The notes under the pieces were generated by a model that was not told where the DNA came from, ran no database searches, and saw only the letters and a list, made by a program, of their open reading frames with translations. A DNA stretch of 64,000 nt from a virus (lineage: Duplodnaviria > Caudoviricetes), in the IMG/VR virus record IMGVR_UViG_3300027715_000011, positions 12,279 to 76,278 of that record, one strand, 5' to 3'. Position 1 is the stretch's first letter, and each line of letters starts with the position of its first letter. Positions 16,989 to 39,475 of the stretch are shown in pieces. Position numbers and translations under genes: made by a program.

Positions 16989-18173
16989 TTAACTTGATTT
17001 GAAATTGTAAATGGGCTTAATAATATCTATGATATCTACAGTATCTCCAATATACTTAGTGATCTCTTCCATTGGCTTGTATACAAATGGGCTTTCATCA
17101 ATGGTGTTTTGATTTACTGATGTGGTAAAGATACCTTCCATAGACTTTTTGAAATCATCCAATTTGAATGTGCGCTTGGCTTCTTTACGACCCATAACTC
17201 TCCCTGCACCATGTGGAGCACTATAATTCCAGTCAGGATTACCTTTACCTACTGCAATAATAGCACCATCACGCATATTCATTGGGATGATAACTTTCTC
17301 ACCATTTTGCGCAGAAATTGCTCCTTTACGAAGGATCATGTGTTCAGTATCGATATAATTATGAACAGTCTCAAATTGGCTATCTACTGAAATACCAGGA
17401 ACATTTCTAATGATCTCTTGTAACATAGATTCCCGGTTGAGATGTGCATATATCTGTAACACCTTCATATCATGAATATAATCATCAAATGATACACCAT
17501 CCAAAAACGCAAGATCATCGACCAATGGATCTATTGTACTTAACTTTTCACCAATGAAAGATTTATCAATTGTATTATTAATAATCTCTGTTCTAATAGT
17601 GCTTTTTGTTTCACGGCACTCTTTAATTGCTAATTTCTGATAATATTCAGCAACCTGCTTCCCAATATTACGAGATCCTGAATGAATAATGAGATACACA
17701 TCACCATTTTTATCAGAATCTAATTCAATCATGTGGTTCCCTCCACCGAGAGTTCCAATTTGATAATAAGCTGATTCTAACCGTTTAAGATTATTTGCAC
17801 ACTTTAAATCACTTAAATTGATACCATTAGCAATAGGATGTATTGTCTTACGAGAATTAAATCCAGATGGTACACTTCTTCTCACCTGGTGATCAAATTC
17901 AGCAAAATCAATCGGTTTCTCAATATTCAACTTTGCACAGATCACCCCACATGAAACATCCACACCTACCAAGTTTGGAGTGATTCTATCATGAATGGTC
18001 ATGGTTGTACCAATTGTACATCCATTTCCTTCATGACAATCAGGCATCACTTTAATATTAGATTCGCAAGCAGCTTCATTATTACATAAATTTGTAATTT
18101 GTGCAATAGCACCATCTTCTACCAAATCCGAATAGATCACGGCATTGGTATACTTACCATTAATTTCAATCAT
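16989..18173 (-). CDS. rtcB: RtcB RNA 2',3'-cyclic phosphate/3'-P ligase (bacterial/phage short type)
   Basis: MPDCH.G.G..IG, VGVDVSCG, GTLGGGNH.IE, IHSGSRNIG, HNY, RKGA, SAPHGAGR, DESPFVYK. Confidence 0.96.
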   Translation of the reverse strand: MIEINGKYTNAVIYSDLVEDGAIAQITNLCNNEAACESNIKVMPDCHEGNGCTIGTTMTIHDRITPNLVGVDVSCGVICAKLNIEKPIDFAEFDHQVRRSVPSGFNSRKTIHPIANGINLSDLKCANNLKRLESAYYQIGTLGGGNHMIELDSDKNGDVYLIIHSGSRNIGKQVAEYYQKLAIKECRETKSTIRTEIINNTIDKSFIGEKLSTIDPLVDDLAFLDGVSFDDYIHDMKVLQIYAHLNRESMLQEIIRNVPGISVDSQFETVHNYIDTEHMILRKGAISAQNGEKVIIPMNMRDGAIIAVGKGNPDWNYSAPHGAGRVMGRKEAKRTFKLDDFKKSMEGIFTTSVNQNTIDESPFVYKPMEEITKYIGDTVDIIDIIKPIYNFKSS

Positions 18174-19696: not shown

Positions 19697-19772
19697 TCCG
19701 GTTGCTCGGATTTGAACCGAGGGTAATACAGGATCTACAGTCCCGCCCGTTCGACCACTCTGGCACAACCGG
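19697..19772 (-). tRNA. tRNA-Tyr(GTA), archaeal type
   Basis: C1:G72 pair, A73, CT-GTA-GA loop, short variable arm, CTCGG-TTCAAAT-CCGAG T arm. Confidence 0.92.
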
Positions 19773-19977: not shown

Positions 19978-21220
19978 TGCCATTCATCTCACTTCTTTAG
20001 ATGTGAGATGAATTGAGTAGATAGAGATAAGTATAAATATTAAGCGGTACAATTATAATGTGCAATGTCGCTTAAAGCGTATAAGTTCAGAATATATCCT
20101 ACCAAGGCGCAAGAGACTGTGTTAGAACAGACTCTTGAGACGTGCCGTAGAATATATAACAGGACATTAGCTTTAAGAAAAGATGAGTATGAAGCAACAA
20201 AAACCTCTATTTCTCTGTTTGAAACCAACAAACAGTTGACTCAGTGGAAGAAACAAAACCCGTTTTATTTATCTAAAGTACATTCTCAGGTATTGCAGAA
20301 TGTTCAGGTTAGAGTAGATTTAGCATTTCAAGGTTTCTTCCGTAGAGTCAAGATAGATCCAACTAATGCAGGGTATCCACGGTTTAAGGGACGCGGTAGA
20401 TATAACTCTATCACGTATCCTCAACCCGGTACTGCATTCAGATTAAGATCTGGGTACATTGAACTCTCGAAGATCGGTAAAGTTAAGGTTAAACAGCACA
20501 GAGCAGTAGAAGGTAACCCCAAAACCTGCACGGTTTCAAAGACATGTACCGGTAAATGGTTTATTTCTCTCGCCTGTGAACAAGAACCAAAACAGAAATC
20601 TGAACGAGAGTTTAAAGCAGTTGGTATTGATCTAGGAGTTAGAACTCTTTGCACTTTATCGAATGGTGATGAAGTTCAGCCGCCACGGTTCCTTATGCAG
20701 GATGAGCCTATCCTTAAAAAAGCACAACAAAAGTTAAGTGCTGCTGAAAAAGGGTCTAAACTTAGGAAGAAGTGTAAGAAGGTAGTTGCTCATATTCATG
20801 AACGAATAGCAAACAAACGGAAAGATTTCTGTGATAAGTTAAGTCTATCTTTAGTTCAGACCTACTCTTTTATTGCGTTTGAAGAACTTGAGATTGATGA
20901 AATGGTGCAGAGATCTGATTGTTATATTGAGAAACATATTCTGGATGCTGCATGGAACCAGTTAGTCAGTAAAACTCAGTGCAAAGCGGAAGATGCTGGT
21001 ACAACGGTTATATTGGTTAACCCACGCAACACCACTAAAATGTGTTCTCAGTGTGGGACGTTAGTACCAAAAGATAGGAATGAAACGGTACATGACTGTC
21101 CTGCGTGTGGTCTCTCGTTAGGAAGAGACCATAACGCTGCAATCAACATACTCAGACTGGGGTTGCAGTCTGTGGGTTCAATCCCTAGATGCCCGTCACT
21201 TCAGTGATGGGAGTAATCAC
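19978..21220 (+). mobile_element. IS200/IS605-family element, tnpB only
   Basis: Left hairpin ATTCATCTCAC-TTCTTTAGAT-GTGAGATGAAT preceded by TTTAT; right end GCCCGTCACTTCAGTGATGGGAGTAATCAC ending at 21220. Confidence 0.85.
20065..21207 (+). CDS. tnpB: TnpB RNA-guided nuclease
   Basis: KAYKFRIYPT, GYPRFK, VGIDLGVR, IAFEEL, TTKMCSQCG, CPACG, RDHNAAINIL. Confidence 0.96.
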   Translation: MSLKAYKFRIYPTKAQETVLEQTLETCRRIYNRTLALRKDEYEATKTSISLFETNKQLTQWKKQNPFYLSKVHSQVLQNVQVRVDLAFQGFFRRVKIDPTNAGYPRFKGRGRYNSITYPQPGTAFRLRSGYIELSKIGKVKVKQHRAVEGNPKTCTVSKTCTGKWFISLACEQEPKQKSEREFKAVGIDLGVRTLCTLSNGDEVQPPRFLMQDEPILKKAQQKLSAAEKGSKLRKKCKKVVAHIHERIANKRKDFCDKLSLSLVQTYSFIAFEELEIDEMVQRSDCYIEKHILDAAWNQLVSKTQCKAEDAGTTVILVNPRNTTKMCSQCGTLVPKDRNETVHDCPACGLSLGRDHNAAINILRLGLQSVGSIPRCPSLQ

Positions 21221-30885: not shown

Positions 30886-31740
30886 TTGTATTTGTACTCT
30901 CCAGCAAAAGAATCTATCAGTATACACAGGGATCTATGTACCCGTATAAAGAAGTCATCTCATTACAGACAGATACATGAGATGCATGGGCGAATGCAGG
31001 AGTATACTCCTCAATATACAGCAATGATGAATGCATATGCATCTGCCATGAAAGAGTACTTCAGGGATCCGTCAGTATACGATACCAAGATAAAACCCAT
31101 TCTTGCACAGCTTACCCGGTATGACGAGATGGTATCTCCGATGAAAGCCAGGATGCATGAGTATACAAAACACCTGACATCATCTGCATTAGACCGGGTA
31201 TCAGCAAACCCTATGCATTCAGACAAAGGATCATTCACATTTACAGGGGAGAATATAGGTAATGCTCAGTACACCGTGGATCAGATCAAACGTATCATGC
31301 ATCCTGACATATTTGATAACCTTGTTGTTACTATACAGGTGAATGATACCGTGCAGCAGTCCAGGGTGCAGCCTTTATCAACTGGATACTTGGTTACGCT
31401 TCCATCACAGTATACAACCGGTGACGTGGCCCATGAGATAGGCCATGTTATAGAGATGTATAAACCTGACATTATGGTACGTGCAAAACAGTTCCAGGCA
31501 TCGAGAACCAGAGGAGAGAACTATCAGTTGTTATCCAAAATCATGCCTGAACATGCATATGACTCTGAATACTGTAGAGCCGGTAACTTCCCTGATCCGT
31601 ATTGTGGAAAGATCACAAAAGACGGGTCTACTGAGGTGTTTGCAATGGGACTTGAGTTTATGGTCATTGATCCGATAACGTTCGCTCATGTTGATCCTGA
31701 GTACTTCCAGATGATACTTGACTGTATTAGAGGTGTCTGA
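30886..31740 (+). CDS. zincin-like metallopeptidase domain protein (copy 1)
   Basis: AHEIGH...FPDPYCGK...TEVFAMGLE...DP..F...DPEYF. Confidence 0.75.
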   Translation: MYLYSPAKESISIHRDLCTRIKKSSHYRQIHEMHGRMQEYTPQYTAMMNAYASAMKEYFRDPSVYDTKIKPILAQLTRYDEMVSPMKARMHEYTKHLTSSALDRVSANPMHSDKGSFTFTGENIGNAQYTVDQIKRIMHPDIFDNLVVTIQVNDTVQQSRVQPLSTGYLVTLPSQYTTGDVAHEIGHVIEMYKPDIMVRAKQFQASRTRGENYQLLSKIMPEHAYDSEYCRAGNFPDPYCGKITKDGSTEVFAMGLEFMVIDPITFAHVDPEYFQMILDCIRGV

Positions 31741-33374
31741 TGAAGGCATATCCGATAACGGTATGTGGGAATGTTGCGTATACCGATGGTATAACCTGGA
31801 AGTCAAAAGATCCTGCACTTGCAGAGTTCTTGAACCATATCAGGAAGAGTCTTGATATGCCCCGGTTGATGCATACACCTGATAAGGCATACTATGTAGC
31901 AGAACGAACGCTCAAACGTCTCAAGGAGTATGGGTTCTGGGATGCAGAACGGCATAGTTCATTCAATTTGTCGCGTGAATGCACTATAGACTGTGAACAT
32001 GTATCATATCAGGATGATTATACACCGTTTATTGATATACCAACTATCAACCCGGCATATAGCAGACATATCATGCTTGAGTCAGGTATCAAGCCGGTCA
32101 TGACTGACGTAATATCACCGTATCTCCCGGTATCGATGCAGACAGCGTTTACAGCGGTGATCACCGGTGCCATGAATCAGGTCACAACATCAATACAGGA
32201 GAGAGATAACAATTCTGATGATATCATCAGTGAACTTGATATATACTTCACGGCAACAAAACCCCTTCCATCAGGTTTGACAATATTCACCCCTCTGATA
32301 GCTGATGGATCACCCGGGGATCAGGTGGATGTTCCTGAGTACATTACTGGATCGCTCAGCTCAAAGGAGATAGACGGAAGGTATTGTGAGATACATGCTG
32401 ATGGATTCTTAAAAGGGGCATTCATTGATGATCCACGGTATCTTATTATCCTGAACCGTGGGATGAAGTACAGGATTGACGCTGCTGACTCTATCAAGGT
32501 GGTGCTCACACCGGTAGGGGTATGTGACACCCCTGATGTAAAGGTGACGTATGCCCCGTCTCCAGAGGCTGAAGAGGTATATAATGCCATTAAAGGGCAT
32601 GTTATGTCAGAGTCAGACATCAATACATCTGCTGATGCATATGCAAAAGAGGTGGACGATCGGCTTGCCAGGTGGCGTATCATGCCTCATACTGATCTTG
32701 CATATACCCCTGAACATAAGTCATGGTTTACCAGATCAAAAGAGTATGTGAAGAGGATGCGTGAGTTTATCAGACAGGCGCAGCATGAGACGTTGTCAAC
32801 CGGTACAGTGGGGCATCTTATATACCGGCTATCAGGTGACGCTACCCTGGATGATGAGACTGTTCAGTCAATAAACCGTATAACGATATATCCAGTAATT
32901 GACTGGTATAAGACTCATCTCCCGCAGAAACTCCTAGACCGGATACTGGTCACCATCATCTGCCAGGATGAGGACGGAAGATCCGCGATGGTAGGGTATG
33001 ACGAGTATCAGGAGATATACCTGAAGTATCAGGCCTATGATGATCCGTCAGTATTAGCTCATGAGATGGGTCATGTCATTGAGATGTGTAACATGGGTGT
33101 AAGGCAGGCGGTGCTCAGGTTTCTTGCATTCAGAGCAGGATCAACCAGGCTTATACGTATGTCTGATGCGTATCCTGACTGGGGATATGGAGAGGACGAG
33201 ATGGCATACCCTGATCATTTTCCGAATCCGTACTGTGGAAAGATCTATGATGATATGAGTACAGAACTCATCTCAATGGGAATAGAGTATATGTTTCGTG
33301 ATCCTGCAACATTTATGGTTAAAGATCCTGAATACTTTATGTTTATGGTTGATGTGATTAAGGGGAGATACTGA
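31740..33374 (+). CDS. multidomain protein: small X domain, degenerate ART-like fold, zincin (copy 2)
   Basis: N-terminal G.VAYTDG.TWKSKDP.L; LPSGLTIF...GD.V...ILNRG.KY; AHEMGH...FPNPYCGK...DPEYF. Confidence 0.7.
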   Translation: MKAYPITVCGNVAYTDGITWKSKDPALAEFLNHIRKSLDMPRLMHTPDKAYYVAERTLKRLKEYGFWDAERHSSFNLSRECTIDCEHVSYQDDYTPFIDIPTINPAYSRHIMLESGIKPVMTDVISPYLPVSMQTAFTAVITGAMNQVTTSIQERDNNSDDIISELDIYFTATKPLPSGLTIFTPLIADGSPGDQVDVPEYITGSLSSKEIDGRYCEIHADGFLKGAFIDDPRYLIILNRGMKYRIDAADSIKVVLTPVGVCDTPDVKVTYAPSPEAEEVYNAIKGHVMSESDINTSADAYAKEVDDRLARWRIMPHTDLAYTPEHKSWFTRSKEYVKRMREFIRQAQHETLSTGTVGHLIYRLSGDATLDDETVQSINRITIYPVIDWYKTHLPQKLLDRILVTIICQDEDGRSAMVGYDEYQEIYLKYQAYDDPSVLAHEMGHVIEMCNMGVRQAVLRFLAFRAGSTRLIRMSDAYPDWGYGEDEMAYPDHFPNPYCGKIYDDMSTELISMGIEYMFRDPATFMVKDPEYFMFMVDVIKGRY

Positions 33375-35779
33375 TGAAGATAACGTGCAACGGCGTCCAG
33401 GCAGAGATAAAAGGAAGCAGATGGACATCTGCAGACAAAGAACTTCAGGAGATCCTCACTGAGTATACCGATATCATCCTGATGTCCACCGATACCATGC
33501 TTCATATCCCTGATGTATCCAAATATATTACATCATTTATTGTTAATAGGCTTACCGATCAGGGAGTAACCTGTGTCATTACTGATCAGCATCCTGACGA
33601 GCCTGAACAGGTTATCATTAGTAGATCAAATAAATTTGATTTTGATAAGAAATATGTGCGTAGAGGAGAAACTCCTCCAAAATGGGCAAAACTGAAACGA
33701 GGGCCAAAAGGAGGACTGCATTATGATGACATCGATCGCACTGTATCATTTATAGAAGACAGGAACTTCTCCCCTGTTCCAGAGACCACTCCTCATCCGG
33801 TGTATATGACAGATAAAGATGGAAACATGATATCTGTCACGTATATCATGAGTGTAGTGAAAAACGTTGTCGGGAAAGAGGGTACTCTGTTCACCATGTA
33901 CTCACTTCCGTCTGATGCGTTTAATGCTCAGTACGGAAGGGGTGAGAACGATTCAGGTGCGTTCAGAGATGGAACAAATCTTATCCTATCGGATGACACC
34001 AGGCTGGGTCCCATTCGTGAAGAGGTGCGGGTAGCACTCGGCCAGATATATCAGATAGACTCGTTGTTAAAACAGGGCATTCTTGAGTATATCACAAACA
34101 GTGTTGCCATTATGCTGAATGTAACGCCTGGTGAGAATACCGAGCTTATGAGGGATATGCTGGATATCCTTGATATACCTGCTAAAACAGCCATATCGAT
34201 ATTTCTCTCACCATATGTAGAGCGTGATATAGCAGGCATTCTTACAGACCGGTTCAAACAGTTGTTCAATGATGGGTACCAGATTATATTTGACAACCTG
34301 GTCTCTGAGCTTGAGAGCACAGTCCCTGGTATGGCATGTCGGTTGGATGAGATACTTAAGTCTGTTCAGGAGAGAAAGCCGTTGTCAGTAGCACTGATGG
34401 TAACCAAGGTATCAGACGATGATCTCAACCAGTTCACTGATGCATACCGGTTCAAGATCACTCATGCAGACTCATGGAAGAGGTTCACCGATCAGATAGC
34501 AAAAATAAAAGAAGATCCCTTTGAGATGAAAGTATTCTTTGAACAGGTACAGTATACCCAGTTTCACATATCACCTGGTATCATCGACAGTATATCAGTT
34601 CATCTGATTGATCAGGCATGCACCGGGCTCCTGCCTCCTAACACCTATATGGCAGGTGTCCCGTCATATATCACAGATGTATTTGATACGGCAGTCATTG
34701 GTGATGTAGTATATCCCTGTACCTGGATACATACCCAGTTCTCACCTGCAGCTGAACTTGTCATCTCGTTCAAGGCAGATAACACAAAAGCTGGTATCCT
34801 GTATCAGGATGACTGGAGTAAAGAGTATATTATAGACAGGAATGTAGGGTGGAAGGTTATAGACCGGTATGAGAACGTCATCTTTGTAGAACCGGTGAAC
34901 CCTGATCCTGTACTTGATCTGTCAGAGTATCAGAGTGATATCACTATGGATGACTGTAATCGTGCAGTATCAGGGGATCTCGTATCTATTCTTGCGGTTG
35001 AAAAAGAGATGAAGTTCCAGATCCCTGAAACCACATTGTATATGGTAAATGGTATTAAAGGGTTGGATGTATACAGTTTGAAAGATGGTGATGAGTTTGT
35101 GCAGCCTGATATTCAGATATGCTCACTTGCTCCGCAGAATCTGTCATTATGTATCGTTGAGTTTGTATACGCGGGTACCTGTGCATGTGTGCATGACTGT
35201 GTCATTCTTCCACGAAATAGATCGTATAAGGTGATCAATTCCCGGGTAAAACATATGGTTGTTGATACGGGCACTCTTGACGTGGTGCAGATGACGTATC
35301 TCACGATACTCCCTATTGAGTCACCTCTTCCGGTATCATGTAACGGTACGGTTATTATGGAGCAGATCCCGAATGTGATACCTGAGAAGGTAGAGCCTGG
35401 TGTCATCCTGTATAAAGGGCTTGATGGGTTTGGGTATACTGTATTGCAGGATCTTCTGATAGGTGATATCATCACCAGTGATGAGGATCACCTGTTTGTG
35501 TATGATTTTGCACTGGCATTAGACCAGGCGGTTCCTATTCTTACTATACCGAACGGGAAACGGGTTATATTCAGAGTGGTACTGAAAGATGGTGATCCAT
35601 TCGTGACCGGAGATAATGCGGTGATATTCCCGATGAACAGGCCTATGGTAGTAAGGGATATCCATATTGGAACGCTTGAGCAGTTCAACAGTCCTGAATC
35701 GGTATACCTGTATGATCTGGAGTATATCGACTCCCCGGTTGCAACAGATTATGAGTATGTTCAGTATCTGGAGATGTGA
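33374..35779 (+). CDS. multidomain protein: X domain, leader motif, three tandem degenerate ART-like folds
   Basis: NGVQAEIKG.RWTSADKEL; KKYVRRGETPPKWAKLKRGPKGGLHY; three units ending I.DRN/LPRN/FPMN.+ V. Confidence 0.65.
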   Translation: MKITCNGVQAEIKGSRWTSADKELQEILTEYTDIILMSTDTMLHIPDVSKYITSFIVNRLTDQGVTCVITDQHPDEPEQVIISRSNKFDFDKKYVRRGETPPKWAKLKRGPKGGLHYDDIDRTVSFIEDRNFSPVPETTPHPVYMTDKDGNMISVTYIMSVVKNVVGKEGTLFTMYSLPSDAFNAQYGRGENDSGAFRDGTNLILSDDTRLGPIREEVRVALGQIYQIDSLLKQGILEYITNSVAIMLNVTPGENTELMRDMLDILDIPAKTAISIFLSPYVERDIAGILTDRFKQLFNDGYQIIFDNLVSELESTVPGMACRLDEILKSVQERKPLSVALMVTKVSDDDLNQFTDAYRFKITHADSWKRFTDQIAKIKEDPFEMKVFFEQVQYTQFHISPGIIDSISVHLIDQACTGLLPPNTYMAGVPSYITDVFDTAVIGDVVYPCTWIHTQFSPAAELVISFKADNTKAGILYQDDWSKEYIIDRNVGWKVIDRYENVIFVEPVNPDPVLDLSEYQSDITMDDCNRAVSGDLVSILAVEKEMKFQIPETTLYMVNGIKGLDVYSLKDGDEFVQPDIQICSLAPQNLSLCIVEFVYAGTCACVHDCVILPRNRSYKVINSRVKHMVVDTGTLDVVQMTYLTILPIESPLPVSCNGTVIMEQIPNVIPEKVEPGVILYKGLDGFGYTVLQDLLIGDIITSDEDHLFVYDFALALDQAVPILTIPNGKRVIFRVVLKDGDPFVTGDNAVIFPMNRPMVVRDIHIGTLEQFNSPESVYLYDLEYIDSPVATDYEYVQYLEM

Positions 35780-35976
35780 GTATGTATATCATCGAGCATG
35801 TGGATCTGTTTACGAAAGAAAATTTGATGTATTTAAACAAATGTGCATTAGATCGAACCTTGTCGATCTATAAGGGGAATGTTATTCCCCTAACCAGTGA
35901 TAACGCTGAAGAATACACAGAGAATGATACTGATACAGGGGAAGAAACTTCCCCTTACTATATGGGGATGATCTGA
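35776..35976 (+). CDS. small hypothetical protein
   Basis: 66 aa, abuts the genes on both sides. Confidence 0.55.
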   Translation: MSMYIIEHVDLFTKENLMYLNKCALDRTLSIYKGNVIPLTSDNAEEYTENDTDTGEETSPYYMGMI

Positions 35977-37914
35977 ATGGTAGATCTTCGCAAGGTGTAT
36001 GTCACCAAGAATCCTAAGCTTGCACCGAAGGGTGCCAAACTCATCACAACCAAGAGGAATGCGGTCTATTACGATACTGATGATCTTAAAGGCGTAAAGA
36101 CGAATGATGTAAAACCATCAGTTACTACACCTGAAAAGAAAGATACCCCTCCAAAGAAGAAACGGTTATACATAAAAGAGGGAAAGAGGTATCATCCATC
36201 CTTTGAGGTGAAGAAGACAAAGACCGGGAGAGGGTATATCGAGTATGACGGGAAGAAACCTGCTGAATATACCGGTATAGACTCACTTAATGATTTAACC
36301 ACTCTCCTTGAACAGAAGTCTGGTGATACTACAGTCATTCAGAAGTATAAGAAGTTGTATTATAATGAAGAATTGTCTGATAAGACAAATAGGCATATAT
36401 CACGTTATGTTTTAGAGAATAAATCGTATAAAGTATTATCAGTCGGTGACGATATATTTGAGTCATTAAAAGGATATAAGGGGGAGGGTGCTATCTCTGA
36501 TGGTGTAGGAAATACTATAGCTATTATATACAAAAATAACATTATTCAACCATATAGGGGATTATTGGCAGTACCTTATATATCTGCACGAAGGTTACGG
36601 GAGACACAGAAGCACCCACTTCCTCAGGATATGATGGAGAGTATCATCTCATCGGTAATGGCAACCGATCATTATGCTCAATTTGGTGATTATGATCCAT
36701 CATATGATAAGATGATTGATTATTATCGATCTATTCTTGGAAAACAGGGTTCCCGGGATGTGGCATTGAAGGCTATCCTGTCACATTATGACATTAATAT
36801 GAATGACCTGTATGCCAGTCTTAAGACAGCACCATATGACAACCCTTCAGGATGGTTATTCAATCAGATTAAGAAGGATTACCCGGAAGCGCCAAAAGAA
36901 TTACTATCATCATTGAAGAAGTCGTTATCGAGTGAGAACTGTTTTAATGATGAGTTTTTAAAAACAGTATCAAAACTGGCTCATTTTTATGATCCAAAAC
37001 TTGATTTCGGAAGTGATCATATTGCAAATAATGCAGTTCAGATCTGTAATGATGGAATATATCTGAAGTATATGAGTGATGGCGCCCTGAAGTGTAAGAA
37101 TTTTGGTATACTTGACAATATCATCTTTAAACTTGATGATCAGAATATCCATACAAAAAGACAGGATCTCTATAAAGTAGTGAATGAGCATGGAAATACA
37201 GTTGTATACCTGCGGAAAGGTGTGAACGCTCTCTCAAAAGAGTCACAGTTTGATATTATTCATAAGGTTATGGGTGATCTCGTCTACGAAAAGTTGAACA
37301 GTATCGGTGCATTACCGTTATCAGATCTCTTCACTGATGATCCTGAAACCAGGAAGGATTTGTTTGTTCAGACGTTTATAAATCAGAGTAAGGATGCTAC
37401 TACGTTATCTGATGATGATATTAAGAGAAGGCATGAACTGAAAGCATTAGTGTATAATAAGATGTATACCGATTCTCCGCTGGTATATTTCAATACCACT
37501 CCTGAAGGTATGAAGAACAAGAGTATGGTAGATGATCTTGCACAACGATACAGTGATGTGAGTAAGAATGCAGAGCATGCCCAGCGGTTAACAATAAAGC
37601 TGCGTGAGACTATCGATCCTGTTGAGAGAGCACGTCTGGAGAGAAATATAGCAGAAGCATTAGGGTTATCTACTGATGAATCATCCCGGGTTGCAGAGTT
37701 GAGATCCAAGTCTGAACAGATAAATCTTAAAGCAACTGCATTACAGGAAGAGTATCTGAAACGGGTGAACGGTTACTGTGAGCAGACCGGTGCCGATCTG
37801 GATGATGTGCTTGAACGGCTTCCATTACTGGATCCTACAGCGGATAAGATATTTAAAGAGTTTAATGAGTTATGTAGGCAGGCTTCAGAGTATAATAATA
37901 GGCTCTTGCATTAA
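35977..37914 (+). CDS. large protein with two copies of the leader motif; probably the N-terminal part of a frameshifted gene
   Basis: DLRKVYVT...APKGAKLITTKRNAVYY and KRLYIKEG...EVKKTKTGRGYIEY; coiled-coil C-terminus. Confidence 0.7.
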   Translation: MVDLRKVYVTKNPKLAPKGAKLITTKRNAVYYDTDDLKGVKTNDVKPSVTTPEKKDTPPKKKRLYIKEGKRYHPSFEVKKTKTGRGYIEYDGKKPAEYTGIDSLNDLTTLLEQKSGDTTVIQKYKKLYYNEELSDKTNRHISRYVLENKSYKVLSVGDDIFESLKGYKGEGAISDGVGNTIAIIYKNNIIQPYRGLLAVPYISARRLRETQKHPLPQDMMESIISSVMATDHYAQFGDYDPSYDKMIDYYRSILGKQGSRDVALKAILSHYDINMNDLYASLKTAPYDNPSGWLFNQIKKDYPEAPKELLSSLKKSLSSENCFNDEFLKTVSKLAHFYDPKLDFGSDHIANNAVQICNDGIYLKYMSDGALKCKNFGILDNIIFKLDDQNIHTKRQDLYKVVNEHGNTVVYLRKGVNALSKESQFDIIHKVMGDLVYEKLNSIGALPLSDLFTDDPETRKDLFVQTFINQSKDATTLSDDDIKRRHELKALVYNKMYTDSPLVYFNTTPEGMKNKSMVDDLAQRYSDVSKNAEHAQRLTIKLRETIDPVERARLERNIAEALGLSTDESSRVAELRSKSEQINLKATALQEEYLKRVNGYCEQTGADLDDVLERLPLLDPTADKIFKEFNELCRQASEYNNRLLH

Positions 37915-37952
37915 AGGAGAAGAACAGCCTGTCTGCTATTGAAACTGAAATA

Positions 37953-38549
37953 ATGGCATTAACGGGGGGGTTAACGTCTGACACTCCATTGATAGTGAAA
38001 CAGTCAACATATCCTGGATATACAGATATCCCTGATAAAACTGCATTTAACAAAACAGTAACGCATGTGAGTGATTGGTTTAGGACTCATGTTTCAGAGT
38101 CGTTATGGAATAAGATACGATTATCAGCAGGGGTTATCACTAGCGGTAGAGCGCATTGTAACAGTAATACCAGTGATGGGAGTATCATAGGGATATCTAA
38201 AGGAGGATTTATAAGCGCATCTACGCTCATTCATGAGATTGGTCATGCAATAGAGCATGATAACCCAAAGGTGAAATCAGAAATTAACGAGTTTTATAAC
38301 CGACGTACTGCCGCATCAGAACTATCCAGGTTAAAGGATATACTTCCTTCATCAGGGTATGATAACGATGAATATACAAAAACTGACAGTTTTCCTGATC
38401 CCTACTGCGGAAAGGTGTACAGTGATCATGCCACTGAACTCCTCTCGATGGGGTTGCAGTTTATGTACGAAGACCCAAACTTATTTATGAAAAAAGATCC
38501 AGAATACTTCAACCTGATATATGATATCATGAAGGGGTGTTACGTATGA
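37953..38549 (+). CDS. zincin-like metallopeptidase domain (copy 3)
   Basis: IHEIGH...FPDPYCGK...TELLSMGLQ...DP..F...DPEYF; frame open from 37902. Confidence 0.78.
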   Translation: MALTGGLTSDTPLIVKQSTYPGYTDIPDKTAFNKTVTHVSDWFRTHVSESLWNKIRLSAGVITSGRAHCNSNTSDGSIIGISKGGFISASTLIHEIGHAIEHDNPKVKSEINEFYNRRTAASELSRLKDILPSSGYDNDEYTKTDSFPDPYCGKVYSDHATELLSMGLQFMYEDPNLFMKKDPEYFNLIYDIMKGCYV

Positions 38550-38815
38550 GATTCTGGTTATGGTTCGGGAATCATAAGGTCTATGCAGACTTTGATGGTA
38601 CTGAATGGACTGCTGAGTTCCCGGTGTTTACCCTTATACTCAACAGACAGATGCCTGCTATTATAGAGGATATGAAAGGACGATACACTCCTATCCCTGA
38701 ACTCTTTATCATGAACAGTATCAATGCAGCATTAGAGCAGTATAGCCTTAAACTTGAGCCTGAAACACCGTTTGTTATCACCGGTGAGATGCCGTGGCTT
38801 GAGTCTACAGTATAA
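38537..38815 (+). CDS. standalone X-domain protein (candidate peptidase partner or immunity)
   Basis: FGNHKVYADFDGTEWTAE.P...LN; overlaps the zincin stop. Confidence 0.6.
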   Translation: MLRMRFWLWFGNHKVYADFDGTEWTAEFPVFTLILNRQMPAIIEDMKGRYTPIPELFIMNSINAALEQYSLKLEPETPFVITGEMPWLESTV

Positions 38816-38854
38816 CGACCTCTTTTTATCTTGTAGTATCAGGTAATATGTGAT

Positions 38855-39475
38855 ATGGATTTCAGATCTATACGCCAGAAACTGTTGGTTGATCTTGCAC
38901 GAATATATGTCACGCATGGTAAACCCATCCCGAAAGGGGCAGTGATTCATAAAGGCGCCAGGAACGGTGAGTGGTATGAGTCAACTCGTGGAACTACGCG
39001 GATGGATCCTGACTACTTAAACCGTACATCGAATAGACATAATGATAAGCAGTATGCCATGGATTCTTATGGTCATGAAGAGGCATTTAATCATGCTCTT
39101 TCATGGGCATCAAACGGTGATGGAAGCGAATATGGATATAAATCACCTCATGAGTTCAAGAAAGGAGTAAAGAAACTGACTGATTTTATATCAATGTATG
39201 GATCATATCCTGAGTTTGGTGAGATGCAACGTGAACTAATGACTGCTATGAGAGATTCTGGATATAATAGTCCGTTTTCAAAATTGTGTAATTACTTCCT
39301 TGATCATTATGATAGATTTAAAAAGGAGAGAATATCACGAAACCCTGATTACAAGACTGGTGTGGGGAATGATACTGATAGATCAGAACATAAACGTAAT
39401 ACATATGGGGAACAGTGGCATTCTGAAGATCACCGAGTGGATAGGCGACGTAACCCAAAATATAAAGATGAGTAG
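38855..39475 (+). CDS. protein with leader motif (DLARIYVT...IPKGAVIHKGARNGEWYE)
   Basis: N-terminus aligns by eye with 3191..4582 and 35977. Confidence 0.65.
   Translation: MDFRSIRQKLLVDLARIYVTHGKPIPKGAVIHKGARNGEWYESTRGTTRMDPDYLNRTSNRHNDKQYAMDSYGHEEAFNHALSWASNGDGSEYGYKSPHEFKKGVKKLTDFISMYGSYPEFGEMQRELMTAMRDSGYNSPFSKLCNYFLDHYDRFKKERISRNPDYKTGVGNDTDRSEHKRNTYGEQWHSEDHRVDRRRNPKYKDE

Follow-up and report, generated by a model that had tools for sequence, protein, structure and literature searches.

MuF proteins are capsid-internal proteins that leave with the DNA. One of them, gp44 of 80alpha, has been described as an ejection protein (PMC12323379). MuF polymorphic toxins have been defined as a group in temperate phages, with small putative immunity open reading frames (ORFs) located downstream; a metallopeptidase domain, a class of that paper's own, is present in 20% of them (PMC5576092). 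The only MuF toxins characterized so far are Apk2 (Apk2/IapK/Aph1) and Bxa (PMC11699363), and no metallopeptidase member has been experimentally tested. Here, we analyzed a 64,000-nucleotide (nt) stretch of DNA from a large uncultured tailed virus, hereafter the window, which is part of the 76,278-base IMG/VR record IMGVR_UViG_3300027715_000011, itself about 53% complete. The plus strand of the window, at positions 30886-39475, holds a densely packed row of genes, A, B, C, a 66-amino-acid (aa) ORF, F, D, E and G, which encodes three copies of a predicted zinc metallopeptidase (zincin) domain and three copies of a small partner domain, X. The zincin and X module is itself common in phages; what sets this locus apart are the fusions of X to the following cargo protein, and the chain of proteins that these fusions imply.

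The first-pass annotation of the window, made from its letters alone, had reported three paralogous zincin domains at the C-termini of A, B and D. All three were recovered, with HEIGH, HEMGH and HEIGH motifs, respectively (Table 1), each followed by PYCGK, then TE...MG, then DPEYF. The three domains share 35-40% pairwise identity and 36 invariant columns, and a profile search of the 76-kb record detected precisely three copies each of the zincin and of X. The zincins of A, B and D gave no peptidase match in Pfam or NCBIfam at E ≤ 0.1 and, more generally, neither database yielded a significant family match for the zincin, for X or for C, F and G. The zincin matches PHROGs 33618, 8561, 20397 and 19443, the last labelled 'minor head protein' and the others 'unknown function'. 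A word-based homologue search with D returned one relative only, and a zincin profile search of 1.84 billion cluster representatives yielded 5,924 proteins at E ≤ 1e-3 and 3,744 at 1e-10.

An AlphaFold2 model of D, computed with 60 diverse sequences (pLDDT 89, pTM 0.87), comprises a helix, a three-stranded sheet (strands 57-62, 68-73 and 76-81), the HExxH helix (residues 89-103, with H94, E95 and H98), and later helices. H94, E95, H98 and E162 are invariant across the family (60/60 and 89/89 diverse members) and in A, B and D, and E101, Y151, Y156, R118, E140 and D182 are invariant or nearly so, family-wide and in all three window copies; among the 60 diverse members, R118, E140, Y151 and D182 show no exception. 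E162, in the TE..SMG motif at the start of helix 163-173, is the candidate third zinc ligand; the first-pass annotation had asked for such a residue, and this Glu is present in A, B and D. Taken together, the conservation pattern and the model indicate that the three domains belong to a zincin family predicted to be catalytically intact and of the gluzincin type.

Exhaustive structural alignment of the D model (VIA-align) against 48,161 solved chains placed the Pro-Pro endopeptidases PPEP-3 (9g0j; Z 9.2, 147 aligned residues) and PPEP-2 (6fpc; Z 9.2) and the catalytic domain of anthrax lethal factor (1yqy; Z 9.0) at the top. Foldseek of the model gave weak agreement with M34-like folds (E 0.04), a BFVD search returned phage 'head morphogenesis domain' proteins, and a profile search of PDB sequences with the zincin produced chance-level HExxH matches only. 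The zincin shares with the M34 peptidases (lethal factor and PPEP-1/2/3; Z 9.0-9.2 over 137-153 aligned residues) the HExxH motif, the downstream Glu ligand and a Tyr shortly before it, but the identity is 12-13%, with no significant sequence match to a solved chain or a Pfam peptidase family. The modelled zincin hence resembles M34 peptidases in fold, the moderate Z scores indicating likeness of fold and not membership. M34 enzymes are secreted bacterial proteins and, to our knowledge, a gene-coupled inhibitor is known for none of them.

The first-pass annotation had also connected these domains to the metallopeptidases (MPTases) of phage polyvalent proteins (PF18818, PMC5512222). The broader part of that connection holds: both are phage zincins with HExxH and Glu, both bear a distant likeness to lethal factor, some relatives hold between one and five copies in a single protein, and the MPTases are linked to MuF and virion genes and have been proposed to act in autoprocessing or as effectors (PMC5512222). 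The narrower part, membership of MPTase-PolyVal (PF18818), does not: A, B and D gave no match, 2 of 89 relatives matched weakly (1e-4), and the fold lies closer to M34. In addition, the motif found here is HExxHxxE with a conserved Arg, whereas the main phage MPTase clade has His and Asp, and the MPTase paper mentions no dedicated partner protein (PMC5512222). In comparison with polyvalent proteins, which unite several unrelated effector domains and interspersed peptidase domains in a single chain, the parts encoded in the window are separate coupled ORFs and their cargo has no recognizable domains, although multi-zincin polypeptides exist in relatives. A distant relationship of the zincin to MPTase-PolyVal is possible.

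The second component of the module, X, directly follows each zincin through overlapping stop and start codons, as first reported: TGATG at 31738-31742 between A and B, TGATG at 33372-33376 between B and C, and ATGA at 38546-38549 between D and E. The X domains of the window have 18-27% mutual identity. We therefore relied on a profile grown from small ORFs located 3' of related zincins in other viruses, which includes no sequence from the window. Used as a hidden Markov model (HMM) against 6,362 ORFs, it detected the X domains of B (XB, E 4e-6), C (XC, E 8.5e-6) and E (XE, E 0.0097), the only window matches in six frames; hhalign gave probabilities to the profile of 95.2%, 95.2% and 81.9%, respectively. 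XE is the weakest member (E 0.0019 in the whole-record search). The claimed homology of the three X domains is thus upheld, as are the fusion of X to the next protein, since the N-termini of B and C match the profile, and the free-standing nature of E, for which the ATG start is more likely than the GTG start initially proposed (Table 1).

The same arrangement recurs outside this virus. The first 16 of 16 related loci contain a 70-99 aa ORF located -10 to +4 nt from the zincin stop. The full set of related loci comprises 117 loci, 144 zincin domains and 106 distinct downstream ORFs. Of these ORFs, 83 have lengths of 60-119 aa, 52 have a 4-nt overlap with the zincin stop, and 73 belong to a single HMM family. 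External X-profile matches abut a zincin stop in 93 of 96 cases, a proportion that is partly circular because the profile was grown from such ORFs. Judged by these sequence comparisons, X is a genuine homologous family and a positionally fixed partner of the zincin.

The C-terminus of X shows a recurrent signature. It is a Tyr in 47 of 72 members, preceded by V or I in 58 of 72, often in the form G-[RVA]-[VI]-Y. Partners that fall outside the X profile (Streptococcus pyogenes phage 315.3, Veillonella and Megasphaera prophages, L010, L045, L086 and L114) end in [VI]Y, VF or HY. In Firmicutes prophages (L003 5363-5596, L029 3406-3654, L037 3525-3773 and L039 3377-3610), the zincin is accompanied by a different helical small protein with a shared FGxxSLDRV motif. 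These FGxxSLDRV partners are unrecognized by the X profile, yet they end in IY, VF or HY. The C-terminal end of the partner, rather than its body, may be the conserved functional element. In a model of X (pLDDT 82), residues 4-63 fold into a core made up of a beta-hairpin, a further strand and three helices, and a low-confidence tail follows; the model gave no convincing match to solved folds (best Z 4.2, Foldseek E > 1). In this model, a folded body with a flexible hydrophobic-aromatic carboxy tail would suit a product-like plug of the peptidase cleft. Potato and leech carboxypeptidase inhibitors are small folded proteins that insert a flexible C-terminal tail, free carboxylate included, into the active site of a zinc peptidase, much as a product would lie there. 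Tail insertion by X would be alike by hypothesis; the two share no homology, and the known inhibitors target funnelin-type carboxypeptidases.

Where the zincin sits in its carriers is nearly constant. At most 9 residues follow it in 130 of the 144 domains from the 117 loci, and among the best 150 of the 5,924 representatives, about 137 have no more than 10 residues between the end of the domain and the C-terminus. The MuF domain PF04233 is present in 26 of 89 zincin relatives. By tblastn of phage records, the zincin lies at the very end of MuF/SPP1 gp7-type head proteins encoded beside portal and terminase genes. Flavobacterium phage pippi8-1 gp028 and the head morphogenesis protein of Bacillus phage vB_BpsS-36 combine an N-terminal PF04233 with a C-terminal zincin, and ORF081R of PaV-LD, annotated as 'virion structural protein', has a C-terminal zincin. 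SpyM3_1120 of S. pyogenes phage 315.3 likewise carries it at the protein end (tblastn); this phage is tabulated as MuF3, with a C-terminal extension and the toxin status 'unknown' (PMC5576092, Table S1). Lactococcal P335-type phages, like PaV-LD, pippi8-1 and vB_BpsS-36, are among the cultured carriers of the module. One zincin locus (L027) was found in a Woesearchaeota metagenome-assembled genome contig. These data show that the zincin and X module is mainly a bacteriophage feature, widespread in tailed viruses and not restricted to those of archaea.

A minority of carriers depart from the single C-terminal position. In about 17 of the best 150 of the 5,924 representatives, 2-5 zincins are interspersed in one polypeptide of 700-4,676 aa. 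A short linker, KHLxGxHDQxxHG, recurs after internal zincins in P0008, P0009, P0010, P0020 and P0042, and P0004 has NPYHDARGRF instead. In such giant polyvalent proteins, the linker motif may serve as a linear signal or as a site of cleavage.

The fusions themselves distinguish the present locus. X is fused ahead of the next protein twice, in B (X, a middle region, then a zincin) and in C (X, an N-terminal-type tag, then cargo). The relative P0006 is 49% identical to B across its full length, X part included, so the B fusion is not an artefact. No X-to-cargo fusion was present in the other related loci examined; this virus and its 49%-identical relative are the only two in which we saw a stable fusion. 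When a database was searched for longer proteins that contain X, B alone was returned, which is weak evidence of rarity, and a related-locus search with protein B returned nothing in viral contigs. Elsewhere, zincin proteins are arrayed in tandem without being joined in this way: L041 has five in a row and L040 four, mostly separated by X genes, L020, L069 and L090 have three each, and PaV-LD has ORF080R with ORF081R. In L040 and L041 (IMGVR_UViG_3300017971_000921 and _007885), each X stop overlaps the next zincin start by 4 nt, and the array X proteins end in L or Q.

The tag that follows X in C is a segment of about 30 aa with a [KR][VI]Y[VI]...PxPKGA...G.RGG.YY-like pattern. It is also found at the N-termini of F (35977-36085) and G (38900-38990), and it heads the zincin proteins of L005, L006, P0037 and P0013. 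F has an apparent second, degenerate copy at residues ~62-95. A regular-expression search for the tag pattern retrieved near relatives of this virus only. The idea that the tag holds a general [VI]Y cleavage site could thus not be extended beyond these near relatives. The cargo of C gave no Pfam, PHROG, NCBIfam or PDB sequence match and no internal repeats by BLAST self-comparison, and a protein atlas search with F returned nothing. Residues ~312-608 of C gave a weak ADP-ribosyltransferase (ART)-like lead, with a protein atlas score of 0.80, within the chance range, and a TM of 0.52 to a Vis-type ART. Strand motifs of C such as DCVILPRNRSYKVI resemble the ARTT region, with no Pfam or PDB sequence support. 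G is probably a member of the same cargo protein set as F and C.

In the window, F and D occupy different reading frames, and the ATG of D lacks a Shine-Dalgarno-like stretch. Two lines of evidence suggest that they are one protein. First, the relative P0013 (926 aa) is a single protein whose first 707 residues align to F and whose remainder aligns to D. Second, a contig of 8,722 nt that Logan assembled from runs X1/X2 at a depth of 17.8 differs from the window at the junction solely by a T>A change and an inserted G at 37899. These runs are the probable source sample in an independent assembly, and are possibly one data set filed twice. With the Logan letters at 37899, positions 35977-38549 form one ORF of 857 aa. 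Because the Logan contig and P0013 both have the fused form, we consider F and D to be joined in one chain; the separate 198-aa zincin ORF most likely reflects a misassembly or a minor variant, with a true protein that consists of tag, cargo and zincin. Programmed frameshifting at the junction was rejected: there is no slippery heptamer, and the alternative assembly has one extra base. Within gene F, at 37036-37254, a second contig from the same runs (depth 7.1, versus 15.9) differs at 24 positions and by two indels over ~220 bases, which points to a related strain or a paralogue of gene F coexisting in the sample.

Coordinates of the row are given in Table 1. The 66-aa ORF and F abut directly, and a GGAGG- or GGGG-like stretch lies 7-12 nt 5' of the start at the A/B, B/C, D/E and 66-aa ORF/F junctions. 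We conclude that the row from A to G forms a single operon with translational coupling. The start of gene A may be the ATG at 30982, which matches the start of the relative P0003, aligned from A residue 33. Upstream, the operon is flanked by genes for two helix-turn-helix (HTH) proteins and a thymidylate-synthase-like gene, and downstream by genes for a HAD-type phosphatase and a DNA methyltransferase. Megablast of the locus against phage records gave no match.

Table 1. Genes and domains of the A-to-G row, in window coordinates.
Feature	Position	Strand	Description
Gene A	30886..31740	+	284 aa (TTG start at 30886) or 252 aa (ATG start at 30982); N-terminal part helical
Gene A zincin domain	~31336-31737, HEIGH at 31432	+	zin5 HMM E 2.2e-63
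Gene B	31740..33374	+	544 aa: X domain (~31740-31950), middle region, C-terminal zincin
Gene B zincin domain	~32964-33371, HEMGH at 33060	+	from the zincin alignment
Gene C	33374..35779	+	801 aa: X (~33374-33620), tag (~33635-33733), ~680 aa cargo without zincin
Small coupled ORF between C and F	35776..35976	+	66 aa; outside the X family
F-D	35977..38549	+	most likely one protein: tag + cargo (F, 35977-37914, 645 aa) + C-terminal zincin (D)
D zincin	37953-38549, HEIGH at 38232	+	198-aa ORF in the window
Gene E	38546..38815	+	free-standing X; 89 aa from ATG 38546, or 92 aa from GTG 38537
Gene G	38855..39475	+	206 aa; N-terminal tag as in F and in the post-X part of C

The first-pass annotation had assigned the window to an archaeal virus, and the evidence on this point is mixed. 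Class I tRNA-Tyr with a C1-G72 pair is of the archaeal/eukaryal type and not of the bacterial type. The tRNA-Tyr of the virus (19697-19772, minus strand), with a length of 76 nt, has no long variable arm and carries the C1-G72 pair, in keeping with that assignment. Conversely, the 80 best cellular relatives of RtcB (16989-18170, minus strand) are all bacterial, at 47-54% identity, and come mainly from Bacillota/Clostridia. An IS605-type TnpB gene (20065-21207, plus strand) sits among the tRNA genes. Its best match, at 87%, is on a 1-kb contig binned as Saccharibacteria, a doubtful binning, and the next matches, at 46-47%, are from Chloroflexales; the 1-kb contig is probably mis-binned viral or mobile DNA. 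The host signals of the window are thus in conflict.

How might the module work? Like MuF toxins, the window proteins have an enzymatic domain at the extreme C-terminus of a protein of a type that travels in the capsid, together with a small coupled immunity-like ORF. In MuF toxins this is an ORF of fewer than 150 aa directly downstream; here, E (89 aa) overlaps the stop of D, and the equivalents for A and B are fused to the next protein. Unlike MuF toxins, the window proteins have no detectable MuF domain and carry a short tag or nothing instead; the constant part is C-terminal and the variable part N-terminal; the module is present three times; and two partners are fused onward. Because the zincin and X are most often attached to the capsid-internal MuF protein, we read the zincin proteins as virion-loaded effectors. 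Our favored interpretation, to which we give an even chance, is by analogy that of MuF-toxin-like, virion-loaded peptidase effectors, each with a cognate inhibitor, X.

In this interpretation, A, B and F-D would each end in an active zinc endopeptidase domain followed by its partner X. X would bind its cognate zincin and, most likely as a stoichiometric inhibitor ('immunity'), silence the peptidase in the producing cell, and the [VI]Y-COOH tail of free-standing X would probably fill the active-site cleft in the manner of a cleavage product. Loading into the virion is suggested by the MuF carriers among the relatives and by the shared N-terminal tag, which would replace MuF as the loading signal in this virus, and the zincin effectors would then act early in the next infected cell. 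Partner binding may also make a chain, in which the two fused X domains would tether A to B and B to C; of these three proteins only C is tagged, and F-D with E would form a second unit. The A-B-C chain is speculative, and we infer each of the other steps as well, from peptidase activity to binding and inhibition by X and loading into the virion.

Several observations weigh against this interpretation. No MuF, portal or capsid gene is present in the 76-kb record, which is about 53% complete; PF04233 matched neither A, B, C, F or D nor anything else in that record at E ≤ 1. The toxin-immunity architecture proposed at first is partly supported, as the module is found on MuF proteins of many phages. 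The operon lies among regulatory and nucleotide-metabolism genes and not in a head module beside the portal, although, as the record covers only about half of the genome, the head module may be located in the remainder. The internal zincins of multi-zincin relatives are followed by linkers and not by X, which fits a releasing peptidase at least as well. Many of the related loci are overlapping or related contigs, so that the counts given above are not independent events. Finally, XE ends in ...STV and not in [VI]Y, and XB and XC have no free C-terminus; because of this, the tail-plug idea cannot hold unchanged in this virus unless the fusions are cleaved.

The strongest competitor, which we regard as possible and clearly the less probable, is that the zincin is a releasing (autoprocessing) peptidase, cutting its carrier or neighbors to free cargo before packaging or after ejection, with X as a pseudo-substrate or product mimic that times the cut. 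Such a role would account for the constancy of the zincin next to variable N-terminal and middle regions, the reverse of classic polymorphic toxins, and for the multi-zincin giants, which recall those described for MPTases (PMC5512222). The X tails end like a cleavage product with Tyr at P1, and both fusions retain a Tyr close to the X/cargo border (...DDY|TP in B, ...KKY|VR in C). However, no conserved [VI]Y site was found at a constant distance upstream of the zincin domains, the border Tyr of B does not line up exactly with that of its 49%-identical relative, many carriers are short (120-260 aa) and would have little cargo to free, and a small partner that is dedicated and strictly paired is what one typically finds in toxin-immunity pairs.

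A combined reading would use the zincin-X contact as a coupling device. The zincin would grip the following X-fused protein, so that the untagged A and B are daisy-chained to the tagged C and co-loaded into the capsid; it would then cut after the Tyr at the X/cargo border, freeing the cargo, and the X...Y-COOH product would stay bound as an inhibitor. The [VI]Y-ended free X proteins of other phages would represent the 'pre-cut' form. Taken jointly, coupling, co-loading and cleavage at the Tyr border make an unlikely combination.

We hold it equally improbable that the operon encodes an unpackaged intracellular module, either a host-takeover or anti-defence protease or a toxin-antitoxin-like addiction or exclusion system, with X as the antitoxin or regulator. 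The setting of the operon, between HTH, thymidylate-synthase-like, HAD phosphatase and DNA methyltransferase genes and far from structural genes, would suit such a module, as would the lack of a MuF match in the record. Against this, the relatives are overwhelmingly C-terminal parts of MuF/head-morphogenesis proteins encoded beside the portal, the tag of F and G heads zincin proteins elsewhere, and the record represents only about half of the genome. Least probable by far is a morphogenetic role, with the zincin as a protease and X as a chaperone or scaffold in head assembly or maturation: the PHROG and GenBank labels 'minor head protein' and 'head morphogenesis protein' and the portal adjacency in many phages would fit it, but these labels come from the MuF part and not from the zincin, many MuF proteins have no zincin domain, and 3-5 divergent copies per genome with unrelated N-termini are unexpected of an assembly factor.

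Virion-loaded effectors with cognate partners hence remain our favored interpretation, and they bear on the biology of tailed phages in several respects. The zincin is among the largest MuF-type toxin-like families, with thousands of clusters, and has neither a database model nor a known substrate. Injection together with the DNA is the presumed route of MuF-type toxins, and the only enzyme classes tested among them are an alarmone synthetase and an ADP-ribosyltransferase. The conserved [VI]Y C-terminus of the partner offers a concrete idea of how the zincin may be silenced, and of a possible cut site. Lastly, the fused form of X is a natural case that raises the question of whether the contact between a toxin and its immunity protein can double as a means of assembling and co-loading effector complexes.

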